Of a stretch of 64,000 bases of DNA, positions 9,955-64,000 are shown one piece after another (within the stretch, counting starts at the first letter, position 1; every line of letters begins with the position of its first letter). The DNA comes from an uncultured Clostridia bacterium. Its GTDB lineage: Bacteria; Bacillota; Clostridia; TANB77; CAG-508. Under the pieces are notes generated by a model. That model was not told the origin of the DNA. It ran no database searches and was given only the letters and a program-made list of their open reading frames with translations. The stretch covers positions 6,375-70,374 of the forward strand of contig CALXVD010000003.1 of the NCBI GenBank assembly GCA_944391865.1, written 5' to 3'. The position numbers and the translations under genes are program-made.

Positions 9955-10506
9955 ATGTTAGAACTATTATTAGGACAAATCCCAGAAGCAATTTATTTTG
10001 CACTGTTTATGATATTTACAAAAGAGTTAAAAACAAAAAGAGTGTTATATATTGTACTTATGGTAGTTGAATATTTGTTATTGAAACATTTTATTAAATT
10101 TAATATGTGGTTTCAAATAGCTTATACGATTTTTCAATTTATAATATTGAAAATTTTATACAAGGAAAAAGCACAAGTAACAGATATATTTACATTTGCA
10201 ATAGCTAGTGCTGTATTGATACTGATAAGTTTTGTTTCATATTCTATTATATGGGCAACTTTGAATAATTATTATGCCGCTGTTATACTTTGTAGGATTT
10301 TATTATTTGTATTTTTAGTTTTGTACCACAAAAAACTTTATAAAATTCAAAAATTATATAAGTTATTGTGGAATAGAACTGATAAAAGACCTGTTAATAT
10401 GAAATCAACAACTTTCAGAGCAGTTAATTTGGTGATTTTTAATATTATGTTTTATATTATAAATTTAGGAATGGCATTTATGCTTATTCAAAACGGAGGT
10501 GTGTAA
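9955..10506 (+). CDS. Polytopic membrane protein (~5-6 TM)
   Basis: 183 aa, very hydrophobic. Function unknown. Confidence 0.4.
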   Translation: MLELLLGQIPEAIYFALFMIFTKELKTKRVLYIVLMVVEYLLLKHFIKFNMWFQIAYTIFQFIILKILYKEKAQVTDIFTFAIASAVLILISFVSYSIIWATLNNYYAAVILCRILLFVFLVLYHKKLYKIQKLYKLLWNRTDKRPVNMKSTTFRAVNLVIFNIMFYIINLGMAFMLIQNGGV

Positions 10507-10606: not shown

Positions 10607-11194
10607 ATGAGTGATAAAACGAAAAACCTCCTTAGTAGTTTAATATTCAATGTTGCAGAGACAATATTAATATTTCTAATGGGTAGACTTCTTAGTCTAC
10701 CCGTAAATTATATAATTATAATAATGTTAACATTTATGATTAGTAGAGGTTGTTTTGGAAAAGTATTACATTTTAAAACATGGTATCGTTGCTTAGTTTG
10801 GAGTTTACTGATACTATTAAGTTTATTTGTGTTATTAAAAGTAGACTTAGTTGTTTCTATAATGTTTGCTATTTTTAGTGCGTTTATAATGACTGGTAGG
10901 TCTAATATCTGTGATATGTATTTATGGACAGGAAAAGTCAGTAAATATGATGCACTAAAGAATTTTGTATCAATAAGTCCTAACCACCCAATACTTCTTG
11001 AACATGAAGAATATTGGAGAAAGAATTATCCAATGAGATATGAAATTTTTCAATTATATTTTAGAGAAAATCAAACTTATGAGTATATCGCAAAACTAAA
11101 AGGTTTTGAAGATAATACTGTTACGAAACGAGAATGTGCTACAATTTATTCTATTTTAGAACGTCCTCTAGGACTTCCACCAGTAGGTAAGTAA
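10607..11194 (+). CDS. Membrane protein (4 TM) with a soluble C-terminal domain
   Basis: 195 aa. Hydrophobic N-terminal half and a ~90-aa C-terminal domain. Confidence 0.4.
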   Translation: MSDKTKNLLSSLIFNVAETILIFLMGRLLSLPVNYIIIIMLTFMISRGCFGKVLHFKTWYRCLVWSLLILLSLFVLLKVDLVVSIMFAIFSAFIMTGRSNICDMYLWTGKVSKYDALKNFVSISPNHPILLEHEEYWRKNYPMRYEIFQLYFRENQTYEYIAKLKGFEDNTVTKRECATIYSILERPLGLPPVGK

Positions 11195-11219
11195 GATATT
11201 TTGAATATCTTATTTTTTT
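11193..11219 (+). terminator. Rho-independent terminator
   Basis: aagatatt-ttg-aatatctt followed by a T7 run. Confidence 0.6.
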
Positions 11220-11233
11220 GTGTTCTAGGAACC

Positions 11234-11264
11234 CTGACAATCATTCTCTCTTTTGAGATATTAT
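11234..11264 (+). promoter_or_regulatory. Putative promoter
   Basis: CTGACA-N18-ATATTA upstream of 11288. Confidence 0.35.
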
Positions 11265-11287
11265 AAAACAAAAAGGAGAGATGAAAA

Positions 11288-11695
11288 ATGTTTAATTCAT
11301 ATAATCAAAATCCATATTTTAGTCCTTATTTTACTCCACAACAACCACAACAAACAACAGTGCCTAGTATGAGATTTAATAGTTTACAAGGAAAGTCAAT
11401 AGATAATTTAGAAGTAGTAAAAGCTATGGACATACCATTAGATGGTAGTATTAGTTATTTTCCACTTGTTGACGGAAGTGCAATAGTAACAAAACAACTT
11501 CAACAAGATGGCACAAGCAAAATTACAATTTATAAGCCTATAGAAGCTGATGAAGCTGCAACAACTAAATATGCTACTATTGAAGACATTGAAAATCATA
11601 TAAAAAATATTAAAATGCCTGACATGAAACCATTACAAGATGAAATCAAAACATTGAAAAAACAAATTAGAATTTTGTTAGACAAGGAGGATTAG
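11288..11695 (+). CDS. Hypothetical protein
   Basis: RBS aaaggagagatgaaaaATG. Confidence 0.3.
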   Translation: MFNSYNQNPYFSPYFTPQQPQQTTVPSMRFNSLQGKSIDNLEVVKAMDIPLDGSISYFPLVDGSAIVTKQLQQDGTSKITIYKPIEADEAATTKYATIEDIENHIKNIKMPDMKPLQDEIKTLKKQIRILLDKED

Positions 11696-11699
11696 TATT

Positions 11700-11921
11700 A
11701 TGAATCCAATGCAAATGTTACAAAATTTTATAATGAAAGGTTTGTCTCCACAAAAAATAGCTGAACAAATGGTAGGAAATAATCCGATGATGGCTAATTT
11801 AGTAAAAATGGCTAATGTTGGAGATACAGAAGGAGTAGAAAAAGTAGCAAGAAATATGTTCAAAGAAAAAGGTAGAGACTTTGATAAAGAATTCTCTGAA
11901 TTTAGAAGTAAGTTTAAATAG
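11700..11921 (+). CDS. Hypothetical small protein
   Basis: 73 aa. Confidence 0.3.
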   Translation: MNPMQMLQNFIMKGLSPQKIAEQMVGNNPMMANLVKMANVGDTEGVEKVARNMFKEKGRDFDKEFSEFRSKFK

Positions 11922-11971
11922 GTTATTATAATAACAAATATAACAAAAATTAAAAGAAGGAGGGAAATGCT

Positions 11972-12071
11972 ATGAGTTATGGTGAAGGTTTATCTGCATC
12001 AGACGTAGCTCTATTATCTAACCCAAATCGCAATGGTTACGACGGTTGGGGAAATGAAGGAGGCGCTTGGT
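11972..12071 (+). CDS. Exon 1 of an intron-split Gly/Cys-rich structural gene (MSYGEGLSASDVALLSNPNRNGYDGWGNEGGAW + first nt of the next codon)
   Basis: Strong RBS (aagaaggaggg). The ORF terminates with a TAA that spans the proposed 5' splice site. Confidence 0.45.
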
Positions 12072-12791
12072 AAACTGAAAATCTGCCAAGGTTAAATCGA
12101 GGTATTAAGCGGGAAGGCTGAAATGCTAATCCGAACCGAAGGCTATAGATACTATAGTCAGGGGCAACGCATAGGTAGTGAAAAGATATAATCTACCCAC
12201 GAGACCTCGACAATTGTTTTTGAATTTGTTATAATAATGTCGGAGGGGATAATAATGAAAAAAGGAAGTTATTATACTTTAGAAGATTATGTTATAACAA
12301 AAAATGGAGAAGTTATAAATAAACATAACGGTCGTATATTAAAACCACAGTTAAATGGAAAAGGGTATTTAAGAGTTTCTATTGGTAAACAATTGATGTT
12401 TGTTCATAGATTAGTTGCTCAAAAATATGTACCTAATCCAGAAAATAAATTACAAGTCAACCATAAAGATGGAAATAAATTAAATAATTATTATAAAAAT
12501 CTTGAATGGGTAACAAATCAAGAAAATAGAAATCACGCTGTGGAAAATGATTTACATCTATGTGGAGCAAGATGTTCTTGGTCGAAATTAACTTCTTCAC
12601 AAGTTTTAGAAATTTTAAATGATGATGTACATACTTTTACTGAATTAGGTAAAATGTATAATGTGAACCGAAATACAATTAGAGATATTAAAATGGGTAA
12701 AACTTGGAAACAATTGAAAAGATATGCTGACCTATAACGAATAAGTAAGTTATAGAAATAGAGGATAAAAAGCCTTTATGATAACAAAATG
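12072..12791 (+). mobile_element. Group I intron (IA-like) carrying an HNH homing-endonuclease ORF
   Basis: A GC-enriched structured block at 12072..12236 contains P/Q/S-like elements (aagcgggaagg, aatccgaacc, gatactatagtcagg). IGS gccaag at 12085..12090 pairs with the exon-1 end cttggt (P1, U-G at the junction). The adjacent atct pairs with ggat at 12792 (P10). Omega-G at 12791. Confidence 0.55.
12237..12737 (+). CDS. HNH homing endonuclease (HNH_3 type) inside the intron
   Basis: KGYLRVSIGK...VHRLVAQKYVPNPENKLQVNHKDGNKLNNYYKNLEWVTNQENRNHA is a classic phage HNH motif. RBS gtcggaggggataataATG. Confidence 0.8.
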   Translation: MSEGIIMKKGSYYTLEDYVITKNGEVINKHNGRILKPQLNGKGYLRVSIGKQLMFVHRLVAQKYVPNPENKLQVNHKDGNKLNNYYKNLEWVTNQENRNHAVENDLHLCGARCSWSKLTSSQVLEILNDDVHTFTELGKMYNVNRNTIRDIKMGKTWKQLKRYADL

Positions 12792-13537
12792 GGATAATTA
12801 TTTTCTTAATCTTTGCTCTTGGTGGTTTCAGAGGTAATGGTTTTGGCTGGGGAAACCAAGGTGGAGGAGCTGCTGATAATTATGTATTAGCTAGTGATTT
12901 CGCTACATTACAAAGACAACTTGATAGTGGTTTTGACAGAAATGGTCAAGCTATTAATCAAGTAAATAATGGACTTTGTGATGGTTTCTACGCTATGAAT
13001 ACTGGTATGTTAAATGGTTTCAGTGGTATTCAAAATACACTTTGTCAAGGATTTGCTGGTGTAAATAATGCTATTACACAAAACGGTTATGAAACAAGAC
13101 TTGGTGTTCAAAATCTTAGCTCACAATTAGCAAACTGCTGCTGCGACGTAAAAACTCAAATAGCAGACTGCTGCTGCACAACTCAAAGAGGAATTGACGG
13201 TATAAACTATAATATGGCTATGAACACAAACAATATTCAACAAACATTATGTAATAACACTAGAGATATAATTGAAAGTAATAATGCTAACTACAGAGCA
13301 TTACACGATGAAATAGTTGCTAATAGAATTGAGGATAAAAATGCTCAAATTCAAGCACAACAAAATGAAATCAACGCTTTAAGATTAGCTGCTAGTCAAG
13401 AAAGACAAAATACTTATTTAATCGACCAATTAAAACCTTGTCCAATACCTGCATATATTACTTGCAACCCATATCAATCATATGGATTTACATATGCAAA
13501 CAATGGTTGTGGATGCAACACTGGATGTGGATGTTAA
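12792..13537 (+). CDS. Exon 2 of the split gene: hydrophobic segment, Gly-rich region, coiled coil, Cys-rich C-terminus (CCC x2, GCGCNTGCGC)
   Basis: The frame is open from 12785 with no start codon before 12995, consistent with an exon. The GWGNxGG motif recurs on both sides of the hydrophobic segment. Confidence 0.45.
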
Positions 13538-13653
13538 TCAAATATATAAAAGCATAAATCTATTTTAGATAACCTTATTTAAAGGACTTGCTAATTGTAA
13601 ATGAGGATAGGCAAGTTCTATCCTCTTATTTTTGAAAGAAAGGAAGTAATGTT

Positions 13654-14112
13654 ATGATACAATCATATATAAATACAATTACACCATTAGATAGTAATAG
13701 TTCTTCTGTGGTTTTCCAAAAAGATTGTATTAGAACTAATAGTTGTAATGGTTGCAGAAGTTGGTTGTGCCACAACGAAGGTTCTGCCAACTATGAAATA
13801 GTTAATGGTGGAATATATAAAATTAGTTTTAATGCTACAATTTCTAGTGCTACCACAGGTGTAGTTGCTTTTGCTTTATTTAACAATGGTGAGCAAATAC
13901 CAGGTACATTAATGGCCGAAACAATTGACGCTGCTGGAGATTATGCTGATATTGGAATAAATAAAAAGGTTAGAGTATGTTGTAATGGGACATCTACTAT
14001 ATCAGTAAGAGCTGTGCCAACAATACCTACTGCAACTGCTCCAACTACACCAATCACAACACAAGTTCCAATCATAGGAAGTGCCAATTTAATAATCGAC
14101 AGAAGATGTTAG
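13654..14112 (+). CDS. Possible C1q/BclA-C-terminal-like beta-sandwich protein
   Basis: ANYEIVNGGIYKISFNATIS..VAFALFNNGEQIPGT..VRVCCNG resembles TNF/C1q-like fibre tips. This is a weak call. Confidence 0.3.
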   Translation: MIQSYINTITPLDSNSSSVVFQKDCIRTNSCNGCRSWLCHNEGSANYEIVNGGIYKISFNATISSATTGVVAFALFNNGEQIPGTLMAETIDAAGDYADIGINKKVRVCCNGTSTISVRAVPTIPTATAPTTPITTQVPIIGSANLIIDRRC

Positions 14113-14123
14113 GAGGTGGCATT

Positions 14124-14669
14124 ATGGAAGAAAAAGAAACTACAGTTGAAGAACAAAATACAATGCAATCTTTGAAAGAATTAGTTGAAGCTGAATTAAA
14201 AGAAATAGTAAATACCGGTATTCAACAAGAAAATCTTGATAATTTAGACAAATTGATAGATATACACAAAGACATTGAAAACGAAGAATACTGGAAAGAA
14301 AAGAAGGAGGTATATCGTATGAGATATTATGATGAAAACAGATATGGTGATGACAGATACGGAGACAATTATAGAATGGACCGTTCTTATGGAAGAAGGG
14401 GTAGACCTATGAACGCACCAAGAGATAGCAGAGGAAGATATAGAGGTCCAGAAGAGAAAATGCACGAAATGATGGAACATTATGGTGATTATACAGTTGC
14501 TTCAGATGCTGCAAATAGAGGTAATTACGGCGCAGAAGAAGACAGTATGAAAAGCCTAGATAGTATGTTAAGGTGTGTTGTTATATTTATGGATATGTTA
14601 GAAGAAAATGCTGATTCACAAGAAGAAGCTCAAATGATTAAAAAATACAGAAAGAAAATAAGTGAATAA
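14124..14669 (+). CDS. Acidic protein with an RYG/RGR-rich disordered segment
   Basis: The start is taken at the ATG after taggaggtggcatt. RYGDDRYGDNYRMDRSYGRRGRP repeats. Confidence 0.3.
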   Translation: MEEKETTVEEQNTMQSLKELVEAELKEIVNTGIQQENLDNLDKLIDIHKDIENEEYWKEKKEVYRMRYYDENRYGDDRYGDNYRMDRSYGRRGRPMNAPRDSRGRYRGPEEKMHEMMEHYGDYTVASDAANRGNYGAEEDSMKSLDSMLRCVVIFMDMLEENADSQEEAQMIKKYRKKISE

Positions 14670-15451: not shown

Positions 15452-16360
15452 ATGGCAGCAGTAAATTACGCTGAAAGCTACGAAAGAGCCTTAGCTCAAG
15501 CATATCCAAATGTGCTTAACTTTGGTGAATTATACAATGTAGCTAATAACCAAGTTTACAAATTCGTAGACTCAAAAACAATTCACATTCCATCAATTTC
15601 TGTAACTGGTAGAAAAAACGTAAACAGAGATGCTATAGATGGAACATTCTCAAGAAACGTAGATAACAGTTTTGAAACAAAAACTTTAACATTCTACAGA
15701 GAGTGGTCAACAAGTATTGACCCAGCAGACGTTATGGATACTAATATGATATTAACTATCCAAAACGCAACACAAGTATTCAATGAAACACAAAAATTCC
15801 CAGAAAAAGACGCTTATACAATAAGCAAAATTTATGCAGACTGGGTAGCTGAAGGAAAAACAGCAGATACAACTGTATTAACAGTTGACAATATTTTAGC
15901 CGTATTTGATAAAATGATGGAAGGAATGGATGAAGCATTAGTACCTTCTCAAGGAAGAATATTATATGTAACTCCAGCTGTTAAAACATTATTAAAATCA
16001 GCTTCAAATATTGGTTTATCTAAATCTGTTGAACACCAAGCTAATATCAACAGAGTTGTTGATAGACTTGATGAAGTTAGATTAATAACAGTACCTTCAT
16101 TCTTAATGAAGACTGCTTATGACTTTACAACAGGATTTGAACCATCTTCAAGTGCTAAACAAGTTAACTTGTTCTTAGTACACCCAAGTGCTATCTTAAC
16201 ACCAAATAAATACGCGTTTGTTGGTATGGAAGCTCCAGCAGCTGGTACAAAAGGTGACTATATCTATTATGAAAAAGAATATGCTGACGTATTCATTTTA
16301 AATAATAGAACAGGTGCTATCGCATTTAACATAACAGACGACGCTGACGCTAGTCTTTAA
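15452..16360 (+). CDS. Major capsid protein
   Basis: Very strong RBS (aaaggaggaaacaattATG). 302 aa. It sits in the head module upstream of connector and tail genes and has MCP-like composition. Confidence 0.65.
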   Translation: MAAVNYAESYERALAQAYPNVLNFGELYNVANNQVYKFVDSKTIHIPSISVTGRKNVNRDAIDGTFSRNVDNSFETKTLTFYREWSTSIDPADVMDTNMILTIQNATQVFNETQKFPEKDAYTISKIYADWVAEGKTADTTVLTVDNILAVFDKMMEGMDEALVPSQGRILYVTPAVKTLLKSASNIGLSKSVEHQANINRVVDRLDEVRLITVPSFLMKTAYDFTTGFEPSSSAKQVNLFLVHPSAILTPNKYAFVGMEAPAAGTKGDYIYYEKEYADVFILNNRTGAIAFNITDDADASL

Positions 16361-32482: not shown

Positions 32483-33019
32483 TTAATCACCTCCTAATTT
32501 TAAGTAGGACCATATATAGTTACCTGCTGTTTTACGACGACCTTCACAACAAGAGCATATATTACCGTGATTTATACCTGTGATTAAACTCGCCTGTACT
32601 ACACTAGGATAATTATTTATTAAATGATATTGTCTATCATATTGATATACAGGTTTACTTTGGTCTAAACCTTTTTTCATATTATCAGTAAATTTCCATA
32701 AACCAGTGTCTTTAGCGTGGTTCATATTTTCTTTTCTTGTCATCCATTCAAGTTTATTGATTTTATTATTCATCTTATTTCCGTCAATATGATTAATTTC
32801 TGGCTTATTTTCTGGATTAGGTATAAAAGCAGTAGCGATGAGTCTATGAAGATATAGATGCTTTACTTTATTATTTTTACAAAGTGCTACACGAATATAT
32901 CCTTTTTCGTTGTGAGGTTTTATATATTTATTTGATTGTATTCGTTTAACATTTCCAAAATTACTTATTTGGTACAATCCTTCATATCCTTTTATGTCTT
33001 TCCATATTTCTGCCGGCAC
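32483..33019 (-). CDS. HNH homing endonuclease with NUMOD4-like N-terminus (GTG start)
   Basis: EIWKDIKGYEGLYQISNFGNVK...LHRLIATAFIPNPENKPEINHIDGNKMNNKINKLEWMTRKEN. RBS AAGGAGG 9 nt before the GTG. Confidence 0.8.
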   Translation of the reverse strand: MPAEIWKDIKGYEGLYQISNFGNVKRIQSNKYIKPHNEKGYIRVALCKNNKVKHLYLHRLIATAFIPNPENKPEINHIDGNKMNNKINKLEWMTRKENMNHAKDTGLWKFTDNMKKGLDQSKPVYQYDRQYHLINNYPSVVQASLITGINHGNICSCCEGRRKTAGNYIWSYLKLGGD

Positions 33020-34931: not shown

Positions 34932-35018
34932 TGGTGGGTGAGGATGGATTCGAACCACCGTAGCCACAAGGACGCCTGATTTACAGTCAGGTGCAATTGA
35001 CCACTCTGCCACTCACCC
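34932..35018 (-). tRNA. tRNA-Tyr (anticodon GTA), CCA encoded
   Basis: Acceptor GGGTGAG/CTCACCC, anticodon arm CCTGA-CTGTAAA-TCAGG, long variable arm, T-loop TTCGAAT, 3' ACCA. Confidence 0.75.
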
Positions 35019-35336
35019 ATATTTTTTATGAAGCTGCGCGTGAATACAATTTTCTTGATTTGTCACCCATTCTAAATTATCTGCATTATTATTTGTTTTA
35101 TTAAAATCTTTATGATTAACTTGAGGTTTATTTTCTGGATTAGGTATGAAAGCCTCTGCTACTAATCTATGGACAAAAACTTGTCTAGTATTACTTCTAC
35201 TACCCATTGATAAGTTAACACTCAAATAATTATCTTTATCTAATTTTTGATTTAAAATTTTATCAGTATCTACACGTTTTACTATACCATCAGTTGATAC
35301 CATATATGAATTATTTATTTTGCATTTCTTCCACAT
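35013..35336 (-). CDS. Truncated HNH endonuclease (stop codon overlaps the 5' end of tRNA-Tyr)
   Basis: VHRLVAEAFIPNPENKPQVNHKDFNKTNNNADNLEWVTNQEN. It is only 107 aa compared with 166..178 for its paralogs. Confidence 0.6.
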   Translation of the reverse strand: MWKKCKINNSYMVSTDGIVKRVDTDKILNQKLDKDNYLSVNLSMGSRSNTRQVFVHRLVAEAFIPNPENKPQVNHKDFNKTNNNADNLEWVTNQENCIHAQLHKKYG

Positions 35337-35490
35337 AATCTACCTCTTTTAATCTATCTAAATGAATTACATAATGATGTTTTTCACAAAAATTTTTATG
35401 ACATTCTTCACTTCCACAAATTATATTCTCTTGTACCTTTTAATCCGTGATATTCGTAGTTTGTTTGTCCTGCCATTGTATTTCTCTCCC

Positions 35491-55624: not shown

Positions 55625-57154
55625 ATGAGTAATCGTGTTTATAGTAGTACAAAACGTGACCCAACTGTAAACAAACATAGTAATCGAGAATTTACTAAAA
55701 GTGATTGTATAAAATGGTTAGATACATTAGAAGATGAAAGTGTTAATCTATGGATTTTAGACCCACCATATAATGTTTTAACTGGTAATATGACAAATAA
55801 AAATGGAGCGGCTGTATTTCATTCAAGATATACTGCGAAAGTGTCACCTAGTGAAAGTGATTTAGAAAAAGGAATTGTAACACCGAGATTTGAAGTAGCA
55901 ATTCCATGGGAAGAAAAACAAAAACTAGATGATTATAAGGAAACGTGTTATAAATGGTATTGTAAAGCTCATCAGAAACTATGTGATGATAGTTTTATGT
56001 TCATATTCTGGTCAATGAGATATTTATATTTAGCATATCAAATATTTGACGTAAATAGAGTTATCTTCTGGCAACAACCAAATATGATTAGTAGTATATC
56101 AGGAGATTTTTGTTATGATATAACACCTATTATAGTAATAAGAAAAGGAAATCCAAGACTTACTAAGGAAGCAGGATTATGGGATAAATCAAGTGTTTTA
56201 AATTTTACTAAACCTCAGGGAAACTATAAAAAAGATAAACTGACTCATCCTTGTTTTGTTGCAGGTACAAAAGTTTTCGTAAATAATAAATGGGAAAACA
56301 TTGAACAAGTTAAAGTAGGAGACATAACTCCTTATGGTGAAATTCAAGAACTTATGGTATCAAAAAGTAATAATATTTACGAATTAACTACTGAATTAGG
56401 GGTAACTAAAGTAACAGGTAATCACCCTTTATTAACGGTAGATAAGAAAGGAATAATTCAATGGAAACAAGTACAGAATTTAACGGAATCAGATTTAGTC
56501 TTACAAAGGCAGGATATTACAGAAGTACAACAAAACCAAGAAAGTTTATGCACGTTCTTGTGTGGGAATATTATAACGGACCAAAACCAGAAGGATATGA
56601 TATACACCATATTAACGGAATTAAAACCGATAATAGAATTGAAAACCTTGAACTTGTCGAACACGGACTACACAGCTTACATCACCACAGAACAAAAAAA
56701 GGATGGAAAATATGCAGTAAATGTAAACGAGAGCTTCCAGCAACAAGTGAATATTGGTATAAAGGCAGAGGATACTATCAAGGACCGTGTAGAGAGTGTA
56801 TATTGCAAGCCAGTAAAGATATTGAGTTTAAGAAAAGAAGAAATGCAAGAAGACGAGAACATAGACGTTTACAATCTATCAGTAAAAAACAATAATTTTT
56901 ATGATGTAGAAAATATAGGTATAGTACATAATTGTCAAAAACCTCAGGCACTACTTGAACATTTGGTATGGCTTAGCGACGCTGACCACGAAGGAAATGT
57001 TATTGGAGATTTCTTTGCAGGTTCAGGGTCCCTATTAAGAGCAGTGAACAAGGCGGATGTTATACTTTGTGATAAAAATGACGAATATTACGATAAATTC
57101 TTTGACGTAAACGTTACAGATGAGCGTGTTTATAGATGTAAGAAAATAGATTAA
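55625..57154 (+). CDS. N6A/N4C DNA methyltransferase (beta class) interrupted by an intein
   Basis: Motif IV DPPY at aa 46-49, motif I FAGSGS at aa 464-469. The extein junction THP|C..HN|CQKPQALLEHL reconstitutes an HPTQKP-type motif (HP-CQKP). Confidence 0.75.
   Translation: MSNRVYSSTKRDPTVNKHSNREFTKSDCIKWLDTLEDESVNLWILDPPYNVLTGNMTNKNGAAVFHSRYTAKVSPSESDLEKGIVTPRFEVAIPWEEKQKLDDYKETCYKWYCKAHQKLCDDSFMFIFWSMRYLYLAYQIFDVNRVIFWQQPNMISSISGDFCYDITPIIVIRKGNPRLTKEAGLWDKSSVLNFTKPQGNYKKDKLTHPCFVAGTKVFVNNKWENIEQVKVGDITPYGEIQELMVSKSNNIYELTTELGVTKVTGNHPLLTVDKKGIIQWKQVQNLTESDLVLQRQDITEVQQNQESLCTFLCGNIITDQNQKDMIYTILTELKPIIELKTLNLSNTDYTAYITTEQKKDGKYAVNVNESFQQQVNIGIKAEDTIKDRVESVYCKPVKILSLRKEEMQEDENIDVYNLSVKNNNFYDVENIGIVHNCQKPQALLEHLVWLSDADHEGNVIGDFFAGSGSLLRAVNKADVILCDKNDEYYDKFFDVNVTDERVYRCKKID
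56252..56932 (+). mobile_element. Intein (227 aa) in the methyltransferase
   Basis: Block A CFVAGTKV, block B VTGNHPLL, blocks F/G DVYNLSVKNNNFYDVENIGIVHN, and a +1 Cys. Confidence 0.7.
56461..56895 (+). CDS. HNH endonuclease ORF nested inside the intein in the +2 frame (not fused to the intein)
   Basis: FMHVLVWEYYNGPKPEGYDIHHINGIKTDNRIENLELVEHGLHSLHH plus a CxxC..CxxC zinc ribbon. It has its own ATG and an RBS (aagaaaggaataattca). Confidence 0.6.
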   Translation: METSTEFNGIRFSLTKAGYYRSTTKPRKFMHVLVWEYYNGPKPEGYDIHHINGIKTDNRIENLELVEHGLHSLHHHRTKKGWKICSKCKRELPATSEYWYKGRGYYQGPCRECILQASKDIEFKKRRNARRREHRRLQSISKKQ

Positions 57155-60158: not shown

Positions 60159-60700
60159 GGCATATGGCTAAAAAGAAAAAAGAAGAACCTATTGACGCAG
60201 AAGATATTATAGGTACTTTCTTAAAAGGGGATAGATACGATGACGATGAAAGATACAGACAAAGTGTTGACGCCATTTATAGAAAATTAAAACCTATATG
60301 GCTTAACGAGTGTAAAGACGCAGTATGGTTATTAAAAGACGAATACGTAAGAGACGTTGCTTCAATATTATACTTAGACGACCAAATGGGTGGCAATTTA
60401 GACCCTACAAGTCTTAGTGAAGAAAGACAGAATTTATTAGGCTGGAAGCAAGTGCAAAGTTCAATTGAGAGGTATAGGGCACTTGATTATTCTTTAGTTG
60501 ATGACGAGAGTATCAAAGCCATATTATCCAGTATTATTAAGAACAAGCAAGCAAGGGACGCTGACAGGCTTAAAGCGATTGAAATGTATACTGGTATGTT
60601 TAGCACTGATAATATTGAAGGTATTACGTTTATTAATGATATAAGTAAACCAAAAGAATTTAAAAAAGAAGAAGATGAGGAGGATGAAGATGACGACTGA
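60155..60700 (+). CDS. Hypothetical protein with an acidic tail
   Basis: 181 aa. Confidence 0.3.
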   Translation: MRHMAKKKKEEPIDAEDIIGTFLKGDRYDDDERYRQSVDAIYRKLKPIWLNECKDAVWLLKDEYVRDVASILYLDDQMGGNLDPTSLSEERQNLLGWKQVQSSIERYRALDYSLVDDESIKAILSSIIKNKQARDADRLKAIEMYTGMFSTDNIEGITFINDISKPKEFKKEEDEEDEDDD

Positions 60701-61211
60701 GATTTGGAAAGATATTAAAGGATATGAAGGACTTTATCAAATTAGTAACTTAGGTAGAGTGAAATCAGCAATCAATAGAAGTAATCATAAACACGAGTTA
60801 ATTTTAAAACCAATAAAAGACCGCGACGGATACTATCGTGTTCATTTATATAAAAAATCAAAGTTAACTACATATTTTATACATAAATTGGTTGCCGAAA
60901 CATTTATACCTAATCCTGATGATTTGCCAATAGTAAACCATAAAGATGAAGATAAAACTAATAATTGCATGAATAATTTAGAATGGTGTACCGTTAGATA
61001 TAATAATAGTTATGGTAATCGACTAATAAATATATCAAAAACTTCTGGAAAACCCGTTCAATGTGTAGAAACTGGTTTAATTTATCATTCTATAAAAGAA
61101 GCTAGTAGGCAAACAGGAATTGATTATAGTTCTATTGCAAAAAATTGTAGAGGTAAAAGGAGTGTAGCAGGTAGCTATCATTGGAAATATGCAAAAAAGG
61201 AGGTGATGTAA
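60675..61211 (+). CDS. HNH homing endonuclease (NUMOD4-like N-terminus)
   Basis: EIWKDIKGYEGLYQISNLGRVKS..IHKLVAETFIPNPDDLPIVNHKDEDKTNNCMNNLEW. It is a paralog of the gene at 32483. Confidence 0.8.
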   Translation: MRRMKMTTEIWKDIKGYEGLYQISNLGRVKSAINRSNHKHELILKPIKDRDGYYRVHLYKKSKLTTYFIHKLVAETFIPNPDDLPIVNHKDEDKTNNCMNNLEWCTVRYNNSYGNRLINISKTSGKPVQCVETGLIYHSIKEASRQTGIDYSSIAKNCRGKRSVAGSYHWKYAKKEVM

Positions 61212-61212
61212 C

Positions 61213-62661
61213 ATGAAACGAGCTTTAAGTGAAATAATTCTTCCTAACTATTGGGACTTACTTGAAGATGGTATAGGTGAACAGTTAGAACAGAGTAGGA
61301 AGATGTTTTTAAGAGGAGGTCGTTTCTCTTGAATTAGGAAAAAGTTATTGGGCTGCGCATCACATTATTATTTCATTACTCTCATTAGCTTGCACTCATG
61401 TTGAACGGTGAACCTTGGGCTTGCTGTCTGGCACTAAGAAAATATAGTAACACACTTAAAACATCTGTATACGCAGAGATTGCTAATGCTATAATTAATT
61501 TAGGCGTAGAAAATAAATTTCAAATGCTTACGAACCCAATGGAAATAAGACTAAAAGGCACTAAGTCTGTAATTAAATTCGCTAACTTGAACACGGCTGA
61601 GGATTACGGAAAAGTTAAGAGTATTAAATGGCCTGGTGGCTACTGTAGATTAATATGGTTTGAAGAAGCGGACCAATTTCAATCTAAGCACGACGTTGAC
61701 CAAGTGTTATTAAGTTTGTATAGAGGTGGAGACATATTTGAAACTATATTCACGTATAATACGCCGTTTAGTCCATCACACTGGTTAAACGTAGGCTGGA
61801 ATAATGAACGAGAAATGCTTACGGATGCTGATAGTGGTGAAGTCAGAAAGAAAAGAGAAAAAGTATATTTCAAACACGTTAATTTATATGATATACCAAG
61901 AGGTATCGTCCCTGAACAGGTTTATGATATGGCTGAAGCAATGCGTGAAGAAAACTTGCAAGAGTGGAAACACGTGATTATGCGGAGAAGTGGGTGACCC
62001 TGCTACTATGGTGTTCCCAAATATTAAAGCTGTACGACCTAAGGACGTAGATTTAGAACACGACTGGTTATTAGGTTCACCAAGTAACTGGCGCTGGCTT
62101 GTTGGTATGGACTATGGTTATCGTCCTGACCCAACTGTATGTGTAGTATGTGGCTATAATAAAATCAGAAAAATCTTATGGATAGTAGATGAAACAAGAG
62201 GTATCGGCTGGAGTGAAGAAGGTATCTATATGAACGTAATGGAAATGCTTAAACGTGGTGGCGCTAGTGCTAAAGCACTATCTGGTGGAGGCGGCGGTGT
62301 TGTGAACGCAAGTAGTTTAATTAATTCCGAAATTGATAACAGAATTATAGACGGCTTACGAAGTAAGGGTTTGAACATATACCCAGTTAAAAAAGTTTCT
62401 GGTTCAAGAGATATTTCATATCAGTTTTTGACTGGAGGTTATGGTGATTTACGTGAAATCTGGATTGATAGTGAACAGTGTCCTGGAGTCTGGGCAGAAT
62501 TTATCGGAGCTGAATTCTTAAGACGTGACATTGGAGGCAAAGAAATCATTGTTCAAGAGTGGCCTACTGTTAATGACCACGGAATAGACGCTACAAGATA
62601 CGCAACACTTGACTTATGGCTAGGCAGAGCTATTACTGGGAGCAAAAGAACATTATTGTAA
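61213..62661 (+). CDS. Terminase large subunit, encoded in four consecutive +1-shifted frame segments
   Basis: The segments are 61213..61332, 61313..61411, 61389..61997 and 61978..62661. Strong RBS aaggaggtga at 61213. Walker-A-like ..LRGGR/SLELGKS, Walker B RLIWFEEADQF, nuclease domain VGMDYGY..DHGIDATRYA. Confidence 0.6.
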
Positions 62662-63337: not shown

Positions 63338-63366
63338 CTTTTAAATTTTAAAAAAGGAGAACTATC

Positions 63367-64000
63367 ATGAGTAGATTTGATTATGAAACAGATGAAGAAT
63401 ATCGTAGCAGACGCCGTAGAGAGTATGAAAATTGGAGAGCAAGAAAACATGAACATGAATATCAAAATGGTTTAGAATTGTTAGGTAAAAGAATACGAAT
63501 AAGTGATTTTGTAAAAGAAAAAATATTAACCGGCAGAACAAAAGTATTAATGATAGATGATAAATTAGTTTTATTTCATAAAGGGAGTACTGGGCATTGG
63601 TGCAATAGTTCTACATTTGAACACGAAATATTCTTACATAGAGAAATATTTAAGCAAAAAACAGGGCTAACCGAAGACGACTTAAAAGGTATGGAAGTTC
63701 ATCACGTAGATGGTAATAAAGATAATAATGACATAACTAATTTGAAATTATTAAGTAAAAGTGAACATGCTCGACATCATTTAATAACAACACGAATTAA
63801 AACAAAAAAGATATGTGAATGGTGTGGAGAAGAATATGAAACATATATAAGTAAAAGTCGTTTTTGTAGTAGTAAATGTGACCACAAATGGAGGTATCAT
63901 AATGAACGTAAATTACAATTGGATACTCGTATATGCAAAAATTGTGGGAAAGAATTTACCTGTAATAAATATAAACCTACTAAGTTTTGTAGTTTATCTT
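63367..64000 (+). CDS. HNH endonuclease with a C-terminal zinc ribbon, 3' partial (runs off the window)
   Basis: EVHHVDGNKDNNDITNLKLLSKSEHARHH and CEWCGEE..CSSKCDHKW..CKNCGKEF. No stop codon before nt 64000. Confidence 0.65.
   Translation, partial: MSRFDYETDEEYRSRRRREYENWRARKHEHEYQNGLELLGKRIRISDFVKEKILTGRTKVLMIDDKLVLFHKGSTGHWCNSSTFEHEIFLHREIFKQKTGLTEDDLKGMEVHHVDGNKDNNDITNLKLLSKSEHARHHLITTRIKTKKICEWCGEEYETYISKSRFCSSKCDHKWRYHNERKLQLDTRICKNCGKEFTCNKYKPTKFCSLS

Follow-up and report, generated by a model that had tools for sequence, protein, structure and literature searches.

Is the plus-strand locus at positions 11972–13537 of this 64,000-nucleotide (nt) stretch, which comes from a contig (CALXVD010000003.1) of an uncultured Clostridia bacterium and is called here the window, a row of small genes or a single gene interrupted by an intervening element? 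An initial annotation, made from the letters alone, had proposed a group I intron with an HNH homing-endonuclease gene splitting a host gene, and this reading has stood up well, as we find an exact insertion, a P1 helix with a U.G pair, a P10 pairing, a terminal G, the P/Q and R/S pairings, a pseudoknot and covariation. We conclude that 12072–12791 is very probably a mobile group I intron of subgroup-IA-like layout and that it interrupts a phage gene whose 281-amino-acid (aa) product is predicted to be membrane-anchored. The host gene is laid out as follows:

11957–11964 (+), ribosome-binding site of exon 1, AAGGAGGG
11972..12071 (+), exon 1, 33 codons and the first base of the W34 codon, collinear with codons 1–33 of proteins P0001–P0004
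12792..13537 (+), exon 2, opening with the GG that completes the W34 codon; its first four bases are GGAU

The limits of the insert are set by the intron-less allele of a 99%-identical relative, on a 31-kb metagenomic contig (L001), which encodes protein P0001 and has the same gene order as the window. The BLAST alignment of the two breaks at 12071|12792, corresponding to 3100|3101 of that contig, with flanks that are 86–97% identical, and across this junction the intron-less allele reads GCTTGGT|GGATAATT (in wider context ...GGAGCTTGGT|GGATAATTATT..., with GGAGCTTGGTGGATAATTATT as the target sequence of this type). A boundary shifted by one base in either direction fails to reproduce that junction, and the insert is therefore 12072..12791 (+), 720 nt lying 3′ of U12071 and ending in G12791, the omega-G. 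Its removal restores the continuous reading frame seen in L001 and P0001. When the predicted spliced product (...GGAW-W-IIIF..., 281 aa) was searched in the protein collection it gave more than 7,900 matches, the top three of which (P0001–P0003) are contiguous 281-aa proteins of 98–99% identity at 100% query coverage. The proposed joining of exon 1 to W-IIIF is thus borne out by protein and junction alike, and the comparison with intron-less homologues that the annotation had recommended yields an uninterrupted gene. The same insert occurs in close relatives, namely contig L002 and the alleles behind five gene calls that comprise exon 2 only (P0014, P0015, P0019, P0024, P0042). Because L001 lacks the insert while L002 and the exon-2-only calls have it, the presence of the intron is polymorphic among near-identical phages. 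Megablast of 11200–14200 against phage records gave no match.

The reading frames on either side were correctly described at the outset: the exon 1 ORF (open reading frame) of 33 aa ends in a TAA at 12071–12073 that spans the splice junction, and the downstream frame is open over 12785–13537, with its first ATG, GTG or TTG not before 12995. Exon 2 in the window accordingly runs for 68 codons without an in-frame ATG, GTG or TTG and has no ribosome-binding site, so that unspliced RNA could give a 33-aa peptide only. The intron lies after the first base of the codon that follows a conserved W, at the start of a hydrophobic helix.

Does the insert itself have the architecture of a group I intron? 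An exact 25-nt stretch of its P4–P5 region occurs in 28 IMG/VR contigs and seven Bacillota genomes or metagenome-assembled genomes, and a 3′ motif (GATAAAAAGC, then 4–8 nt, then GATAACA) in more than 120 IMG/VR contigs; the 5′ and 3′ intron halves in these relatives were joined by profile searches. The fold was tested by comparison with such relatives because Rfam gave no answer. We used an alignment (A3) of 42 distinct family members from which the variable P8 loop, including the ORF, had been removed, and scored a structure of 55 pairs comprising P3, P4, P5, P6a, P7 (which crosses P3), the hairpin between P7 and P3′, P8, P9 and P9.1. Standard pairs fill 95.7% of the cells (94.6–95.7% overall), as against 32–37% when the 3′ partners are slid by one to three columns; 46 of the 55 pairs change on both sides among the 42 sequences (49 of 58 once P6 is added), and none of 500 shuffles reaches any observed pairing measure. 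RNAalifold, which is independent of the drawn structure, recovers every nested helix, P7 being beyond its reach because it is pseudoknotted. The insert therefore shows the P3–P9 core, the P/Q pairing (P4), the R/S pairing (P7) and the P3/P7 pseudoknot of a group I intron, with the following elements:

12066..12090 (+), P1 hairpin, exon CUUGGU (12066–71) paired with the guide GCCAAG (12085–90), with U12071.G12085 at the splice site
12081–84 (+), P10, AUCU in the P1 loop paired with GGAU (12792–95), the start of exon 2 directly after G12791
12097..12103 (+), P3 5′ strand UCGAGGU, paired with 12204–12210; both-side changes at 6 of 7 pairs, with 91% of cells paired
12104–12108 (+), junction J3/4, AUUAA
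12109..12135 (+), P4–P5 domain with the P and Q elements; 96.6% of cells paired
12110–13 with 12130–33 (+), P4, CGGG with UCCG; J4/5 and J5/4 are AA each
12116–18 with 12125–27 (+), P5, GGC with GCU, closed by U.U around a GAAA tetraloop (12120–23)
12136–12137 with 12161–12162 (+), P6, C12136-C12137 with G12161-G12162, paired in 42 of 42 sequences as CG, UA and GC types
12141–48 with 12152–59 (+), P6a, GGCUAUAG with CUAUAGUC; both-side changes at 7 of 8 pairs
12165..12173 (+), P7 5′ strand CAACGCAUA, paired with 12723–12729; C12168 is bulged
12165–12174 (+), R element CAACGCAUAG
12174..12197 (+), P7.1-like hairpin between P7 and P3′, GGUAG (12174–78) with CUACC (12193–97)
12198–12203 (+), junction J7.1/3, CACGAG
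12204..12210 (+), P3 3′ strand ACCUCGA
12211..12217 (+), P8 5′ strand CAAUUGU, paired with 12710–12716; 7 of 7 pairs change on both sides
12710–16 (+), P8 3′ strand ACAAUUG
12717–22 (+), junction J8/7, AAAAGA
12718–12731 (+), S element AAAGAUAUGCUGAC, inside the 3′ end of the HNH ORF
12723–29 (+), P7 3′ strand UAUGCUG, within the S element
12732..12755 (+), P9 hairpin, CUAUAAC (12732–38) with GUUAUAG (12749–55); 100% paired, 5 of 7 pairs change on both sides
12758..12779 (+), P9.1 hairpin, AUAGAGG (12758–64) with CCUUUAU (12773–79); 100% paired, 7 of 7 pairs change on both sides
12780..12791 (+), 3′ tail GAUAACAAAAUG, ending in the omega-G, its boundary set by the intron-less allele

The pairings that tie the insert to its exons are those expected of a group I intron, with a U at the 5′ splice site held in a U.G wobble by an internal guide, and an omega-G followed by a P10. 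Both had been proposed initially at these very positions, and both prove to covary. The exon and guide change together in the relatives (CATGGT/GCCATG, GTTGGT/GCCAAC, GATGGT/GCCATC, CACGGT/GCCGTG, CTCGAT/GTCGAG, TTCGGT/GCCGAA, TACGGT/GCCGTA), such that the guide complements the last six exon bases at at least eight different insertion sites, always with the terminal U.G, and P10, in which the bases directly 5′ of the guide pair with the beginning of exon 2, appears as GGAU/AUCU, GGGUU/AACUU, AAUC/GAUU and ACAAU/AUUGU. Within the core, P4 changes on both sides from CGGG/UCCG to CUGG/UCAG or CAAG/CUUG and P5 from GGC/GCU to CCC/GGG, while P9.1 differs between the window and L002 in a compensatory manner (AGAGG/CCUUU versus AAGAG/CUCUU). 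P7, which crosses P3 to form the pseudoknot, is paired in 100% of cells, with 4 of 7 pairs changing on both sides and R/S combinations of GCAUA/UAUGC, GACUA/UAGUC, GAAUA/UAUUC and GCGUA/UACGC. Beside the bulged C12168, the pair G12169-C12727 (alignment columns 94/173) is invariant in 42 of 42 sequences; a G-C pair beside such a bulge marks the guanosine-binding site of known group I introns, and G12169-C12727 presumably has that role here. Other constant features are the P9.1 loop, formed by the conserved motif GAUAAAAAG, and the GAUAACA of the 3′ tail, which is nearly invariant across the family; the GAUAAC of this tail might pair with the J1/3 segment.

The layout of the core is subgroup-IA-like. 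Extra pairing between the P7 5′ strand and P3′ (P7.1 with P7.1a or P7.2) is the hallmark of subgroup IA of Michel and Westhof, and the predicted fold places one covarying hairpin exactly there: all five of its pairs change on both sides, 99.5% of its cells are paired, some relatives carry a nested extension, and its loop holds a nearly invariant AUAUAAU. P2 is absent from the window intron. As a lead only, the phage T4 td intron (subgroup IA2, with I-TevI) presumably shares the order P7, extra hairpin(s), P3′, P8 and P7′, very similar R (AACG-N-CUA) and S (AGAUAU-G/A-N-CUG) elements, the pattern of J3/4, P4 and J4/5, and a promoter of its own for the intron ORF. Against the pair of hairpins (P7.1 and P7.2), the P2 and the P6a-borne GIY-YIG ORF of td, the window intron shows a single hairpin, lacks P2 and carries its HNH ORF in P8.

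Other strands were considered for P7. A pairing of AAGGCU (12140–45) with AGCCUU (12770–75) was dropped, as L002 places the 3′ segment in a local hairpin with compensatory changes. The initial annotation had recognized the P and Q elements correctly and misplaced S: its gatactatagtcagg in fact comprises the P6a loop and 3′ strand and runs on into the first part of the P6 3′ strand. Neither GAUACUAUAGUCAGG, from that proposed S element, nor AAGAUAUAAUCUACC, in the P7.1 loop, can be the 3′ strand of P7, since either choice leaves no room for P3′ and P8 and since the true R/S pair covaries elsewhere.

Several observations weigh against the intron interpretation. The structure was partly drawn by hand from the same sequences on which it was scored, which favours it in the slid-partner control, although the RNAalifold result offsets this. 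Rfam model RF00028 finds no match in the whole window at its gathering threshold (50 bits) or in 11900–13000 at E ≤ 10, nor does it match the relatives, compact ORF-less ones included. The minimum free energy of the 5′ part (12060–12240), folded as a single sequence, is not significant (z = −1.5); the initial description of this part as GC-rich is correct (42.8% GC over 12072–12216, versus 30.7% in the whole window), whereas folding energy alone does not bear out its description as stem-forming. Lastly, alleles of the L002 type have an in-frame ATG in the 3′ tail of the intron that could start exon 2, and their exon-2-only gene calls indeed begin MVTKNGIIIF; the corresponding ATG is out of frame in the window. 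The RF00028 miss reflects the coverage of the model and does not count against a group I fold, and support for the predicted structure comes from comparison with relatives, not from folding energy. The annotation had offered a low Rfam score, together with evidence of separate genes in relatives, as a joint ground for abandoning the intron; the score is indeed below threshold, but the relatives carry one fused gene, and so the joint ground fails.

What, then, is the role of the ORF inside the insert? Two features are relevant here:

12255..12737 (+), HNH homing-endonuclease ORF, 160 aa, in the P8 loop; an alternative ATG at 12237 gives 166 aa
12207..12235 (+), promoter-like site, TCGACA, a 17-nt spacer and TG-n-TATAAT, near-consensus sigma-70-type with 11 of 12 matches and an extended −10

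The most likely start is the ATG at 12255, not that at 12237 as first annotated, because a ribosome-binding site (GGAGGGG) lies seven bases upstream of it and the L002 gene call is likewise of 160 aa. The product matches Pfam HNH_3 (9e-12, 44.9 bits against a cutoff of 24.8), phrog_59 (7.5e-44) and I-HmuI (PDB 1U3E; E = 3.9e-12, aligned to I-HmuI residues 13–108 including the HNH motif), with a weak NUMOD4 match (21.9 bits) just under the Pfam cutoff of 23.4 and a hint of a C-terminal helix-turn-helix, and by this homology it is an I-HmuI-like HNH homing endonuclease. Its placement in the P8 loop agrees with the peripheral location first assigned to it, but it is not purely peripheral, because its last nine codons (12711–12737; CAA UUG AAA AGA UAU GCU GAC CUA UAA) overlap P8′, J8/7, P7′ and the 5′ strand of P9. 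The gene appears to have its own promoter, a function suggested by the promoter-like site and by TGnTATAAT occurring also 5′ of the ORF in six relatives (L004, L006, L008, L011, L014, L025). At one insertion site there are both ORF-less (L018) and ORF-containing (L006) introns, and the sharing of a site by such twins fits an invasion of a pre-existing ribozyme by the endonuclease gene.

On the proposed mechanism, which is that of group I introns in general, the pre-mRNA would fold into P1–P10 around the P3/P7 pseudoknot, and an external guanosine bound in P7 would attack after U12071, held in P1 by the U.G wobble. The freed exon 1 would then attack after omega-G12791, with P10 aligning exon 2, and the joining of ...GCU UGG U to GG AUA AUU... 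(predicted junction GCUUGGU-GGAUAAUU) would restore the frame ...GGAW-W-IIIF.... By analogy with I-HmuI, the endonuclease would cleave or nick alleles that lack the intron, close to where it inserts, and repair from an intron-containing copy would spread the intron by homing. We directly observe the exact insertion, the covarying structure, the restored frame, the endonuclease homology and the presence/absence polymorphism; catalysis, self-sufficient splicing and the activity and target of the endonuclease we infer, and we are confident that the window intron is a functional, splicing one.

Might the intron instead have decayed, leaving it unable to splice and the host gene inactivated in this phage? 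Homing endonucleases and their introns do degenerate after fixation, but here every core-helix position in the window is a standard pair, the invariant positions are kept and the HNH ORF is intact; moreover, the core from P3 to P3′ is one base (in the P6a loop) from that of L002 while the exons differ, and both exons remain under constraint, their frames being intact and encoding a protein 98–99% identical to that of intron-less alleles, all of which makes decay improbable. It is more than improbable, in our estimation, that a free-standing endonuclease cassette split the gene into halves that are translated separately and never joined as RNA. Some phage genes are known to be split by homing-endonuclease genes in this way, apparently free-standing I-HmuI-like HNH genes occur elsewhere in the window, and gene callers do annotate three separate ORFs at the locus. 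However, translation of the second half would have to begin in an exon devoid of start codon and ribosome-binding site, the insert contains about 240 nt of non-coding sequence conserved in the form of paired, covarying RNA, versions of about 245 nt that lack the ORF sit at equivalent sites, and P1 and P10 link the insert to the exon on either side.

Group II introns, inteins and translational bypasses also interrupt phage genes, and a probable intein lies elsewhere in the window (in the methylase ORF described below), yet we regard an element of any of these types as scarcely credible at this site. An intein is contradicted by the stop codon at the beginning of the insert and by its being out of frame; a group II intron is opposed by the lack of a reverse transcriptase and of any Rfam group II match; and a 720-nt insert with group I helices and a pseudoknot is unlike the bypass of T4 gene 60, which spans 50 nt. 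A group I intron thus remains our reading of the insert.

How widespread are such introns? Members of the family range from compact copies, in which 13–36 nt separate P3′ from J8/7 (P8 loops of about 1–16 nt) and the ORF-less intron measures about 245 nt, to others that carry inserts of about 490–950 nt in that interval. In very diverged alleles of the host gene the same position is occupied (L004, L008, L010, L012, L014, L015, L017, L022, L025). Some viral contigs carry several copies at short distances from one another (three in L031, two in L087), and in L094 a family member and a different group I intron lie about 330 nt apart (1812–2007 (−) and 2334–2552 (−)); RF00028 detects the other intron of that contig at 92.8 bits and not the adjoining family member. 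Unrelated Rfam motifs also occur in relatives (L009 627–764 (+), L005 2566–2633 (+), L026 3860–3917 (+): skipping-rope, int-alpA, GP20-b).

The family is also present, unannotated, in cultured phages. In Staphylococcus phage vB-SscS-F1 (L150; MW589261.1, 2224–3926), an 888-nt ‘hypothetical protein’ ORF and a sequence matching the intron core lie between two coding sequences that are each labelled ‘major tail protein’, an arrangement suggestive of an unannotated intron of this family. Further matches occur in Listeria phage LIS04, beside its terminase and intein region, and in Bacillus phage BpSp. Our literature search found no description of this intron family, nor of an intron in this host gene.

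Endonuclease-bearing group I introns (HNH or GIY-YIG) have for decades been a familiar type of selfish element in phage genes, with examples in T4, SPO1, Twort, cluster J mycobacteriophages and the Bastillevirinae. Like the SPO1 DNA-polymerase intron (which encodes I-HmuI, 1U3E), the window intron is a phage group I intron carrying an HNH endonuclease; unlike it, the host gene encodes a predicted membrane-anchored protein, not a DNA polymerase, and the ribozyme sequence is unrelated at the level detectable by Rfam. The introns of Bastillevirinae phages mostly match subgroup IA models (55 of 72 matches fell to the IA2 and IA3 models), and in most of them a loop that codes for an HNH/NUMOD4 nuclease of phrog_59 breaks up the intron; among the Bastillevirinae introns shown to splice, nucleases of this PHROG family are those most often encoded; parts of such introns are missed by the Rfam and GISSD models, and phage introns outgrow the 1990 subgroup scheme (PMC11878797). 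The window intron resembles these in its IA-type layout, its place in a Bacillota phage gene and its phrog_59 nuclease in a loop, but the Bastillevirinae introns were found by Rfam or GISSD match, whereas the window family is without any Rfam match, and the host genes and phage lineage differ. Group I introns in capsid and tail genes are reported for cluster J mycobacteriophages (PMC3706429); these likewise interrupt genes in the virion-structure portion of a phage genome, in a different host phylum.

The interrupted gene was first annotated as a structural gene. Its position supports this, the major head protein (15452–16360, phrog_422; 55% identity to its counterparts in Clostridioides difficile phages) being encoded a few genes further downstream; its product does not, having nothing significant in Pfam and falling in two PHROG families (phrog_16490 and phrog_9288) without known function, so that ‘structural gene’ is a plausible label from position. 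The spliced 281-aa protein begins with a short segment, after which come GWGNEGG, a hydrophobic helix (WWIIIFLIFALGGF) and GWGNQGG, then an extended helical stretch that includes two CCC triplets, and lastly a C-terminus rich in Cys and Gly; the GWGN motifs, CCC triplets and C-terminal GCGC that had been noted are thus present. An AlphaFold model (62-sequence alignment) gave a mean predicted local distance difference test (pLDDT) of 46.5 and a predicted template modelling score (pTM) of 0.18, with only a transmembrane helix and two long helices, and the protein is predicted to be membrane-anchored, helical and Cys/Gly-rich. Distant homologues in crAss-like records bear the tentative label ‘spike protein/glycoprotein’. 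A terminator-like hairpin lies 3′ of the gene.

Around the host gene, the following ORFs were noted:

9955–10506 (+), multi-pass membrane-protein ORF just upstream, without a PHROG match
10607–11194 (+), a second such ORF, likewise just upstream and without a PHROG match
13654–14112 (+), 152-aa ORF just downstream, by eye like a BclA/C1q-like beta-sandwich C-terminal domain, matching only a PHROG family without known function

The two upstream ORFs and the predicted membrane-anchored host protein form a membrane-protein cluster beside the head genes.

The remainder of the window contains further genes of the endonuclease kind and other interrupted genes:

32483–33019 (−), I-HmuI-like ORF with HNH_3 and NUMOD4
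35016–35339 (−), I-HmuI-like ORF with HNH_3 and NUMOD4
60675–61211 (+), I-HmuI-like ORF with HNH_3 and NUMOD4
63352–63999 (+), possibly another such ORF, the match being weak
55625–57154 (+), DNA methylase ORF, matching Pfam N6_N4_Mtase end to end over residues 40–491
61398–61997 and 61990–62661 (+), two overlapping ORFs that apparently make up the terminase large subunit

One of the further HNH ORFs abuts a transfer RNA gene (34935–35018), and another lies just upstream of the terminase ORFs. No copy of the 12072–12791 intron core adjoins these HNH ORFs, which are either free-standing or in introns of another family. The methylase ORF has an Intein_splicing match at residues 235–436 (32 bits, just under the cutoff of 35.8) and, judged by this match, probably carries an intein; for the split of the terminase, a frameshift, a further intervening element and a sequencing error are all conceivable.

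For this phage, the three ORF calls of 33, 166 and 180 aa collapse into one 281-aa gene and an intron-borne endonuclease. What is known about intron biology is unchanged by this intron; slightly new is the finding that the family is abundant among phages of the gut and of Bacillota yet unseen by Rfam, and unannotated in cultured phages. We raise as a tentative possibility, and one that we ourselves somewhat doubt, that the window intron is typical of a large, coherent and so far undescribed IA-like group I lineage. If so, such a lineage would be marked by a compact core of about 245 nt, the absence of P2 from many members, a single P7.1 hairpin, a very short GAAA-capped P5, two loop motifs that do not vary (AUAUAAU and GAUAAAAAG) and a GAUAACA tail. 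It would be plentiful among phages and prophages of the gut and of Bacillota (over 120 IMG/VR contigs, two or three copies in some), and, being invisible to Rfam, would cause split genes to be systematically mis-annotated; within one host-gene family it would keep its codon position across very diverged alleles while the guide tracks the exon. A covariance model built from alignment A3 would recover many split phage genes, and would strengthen the case that phage group I introns outgrow current subgroup models.

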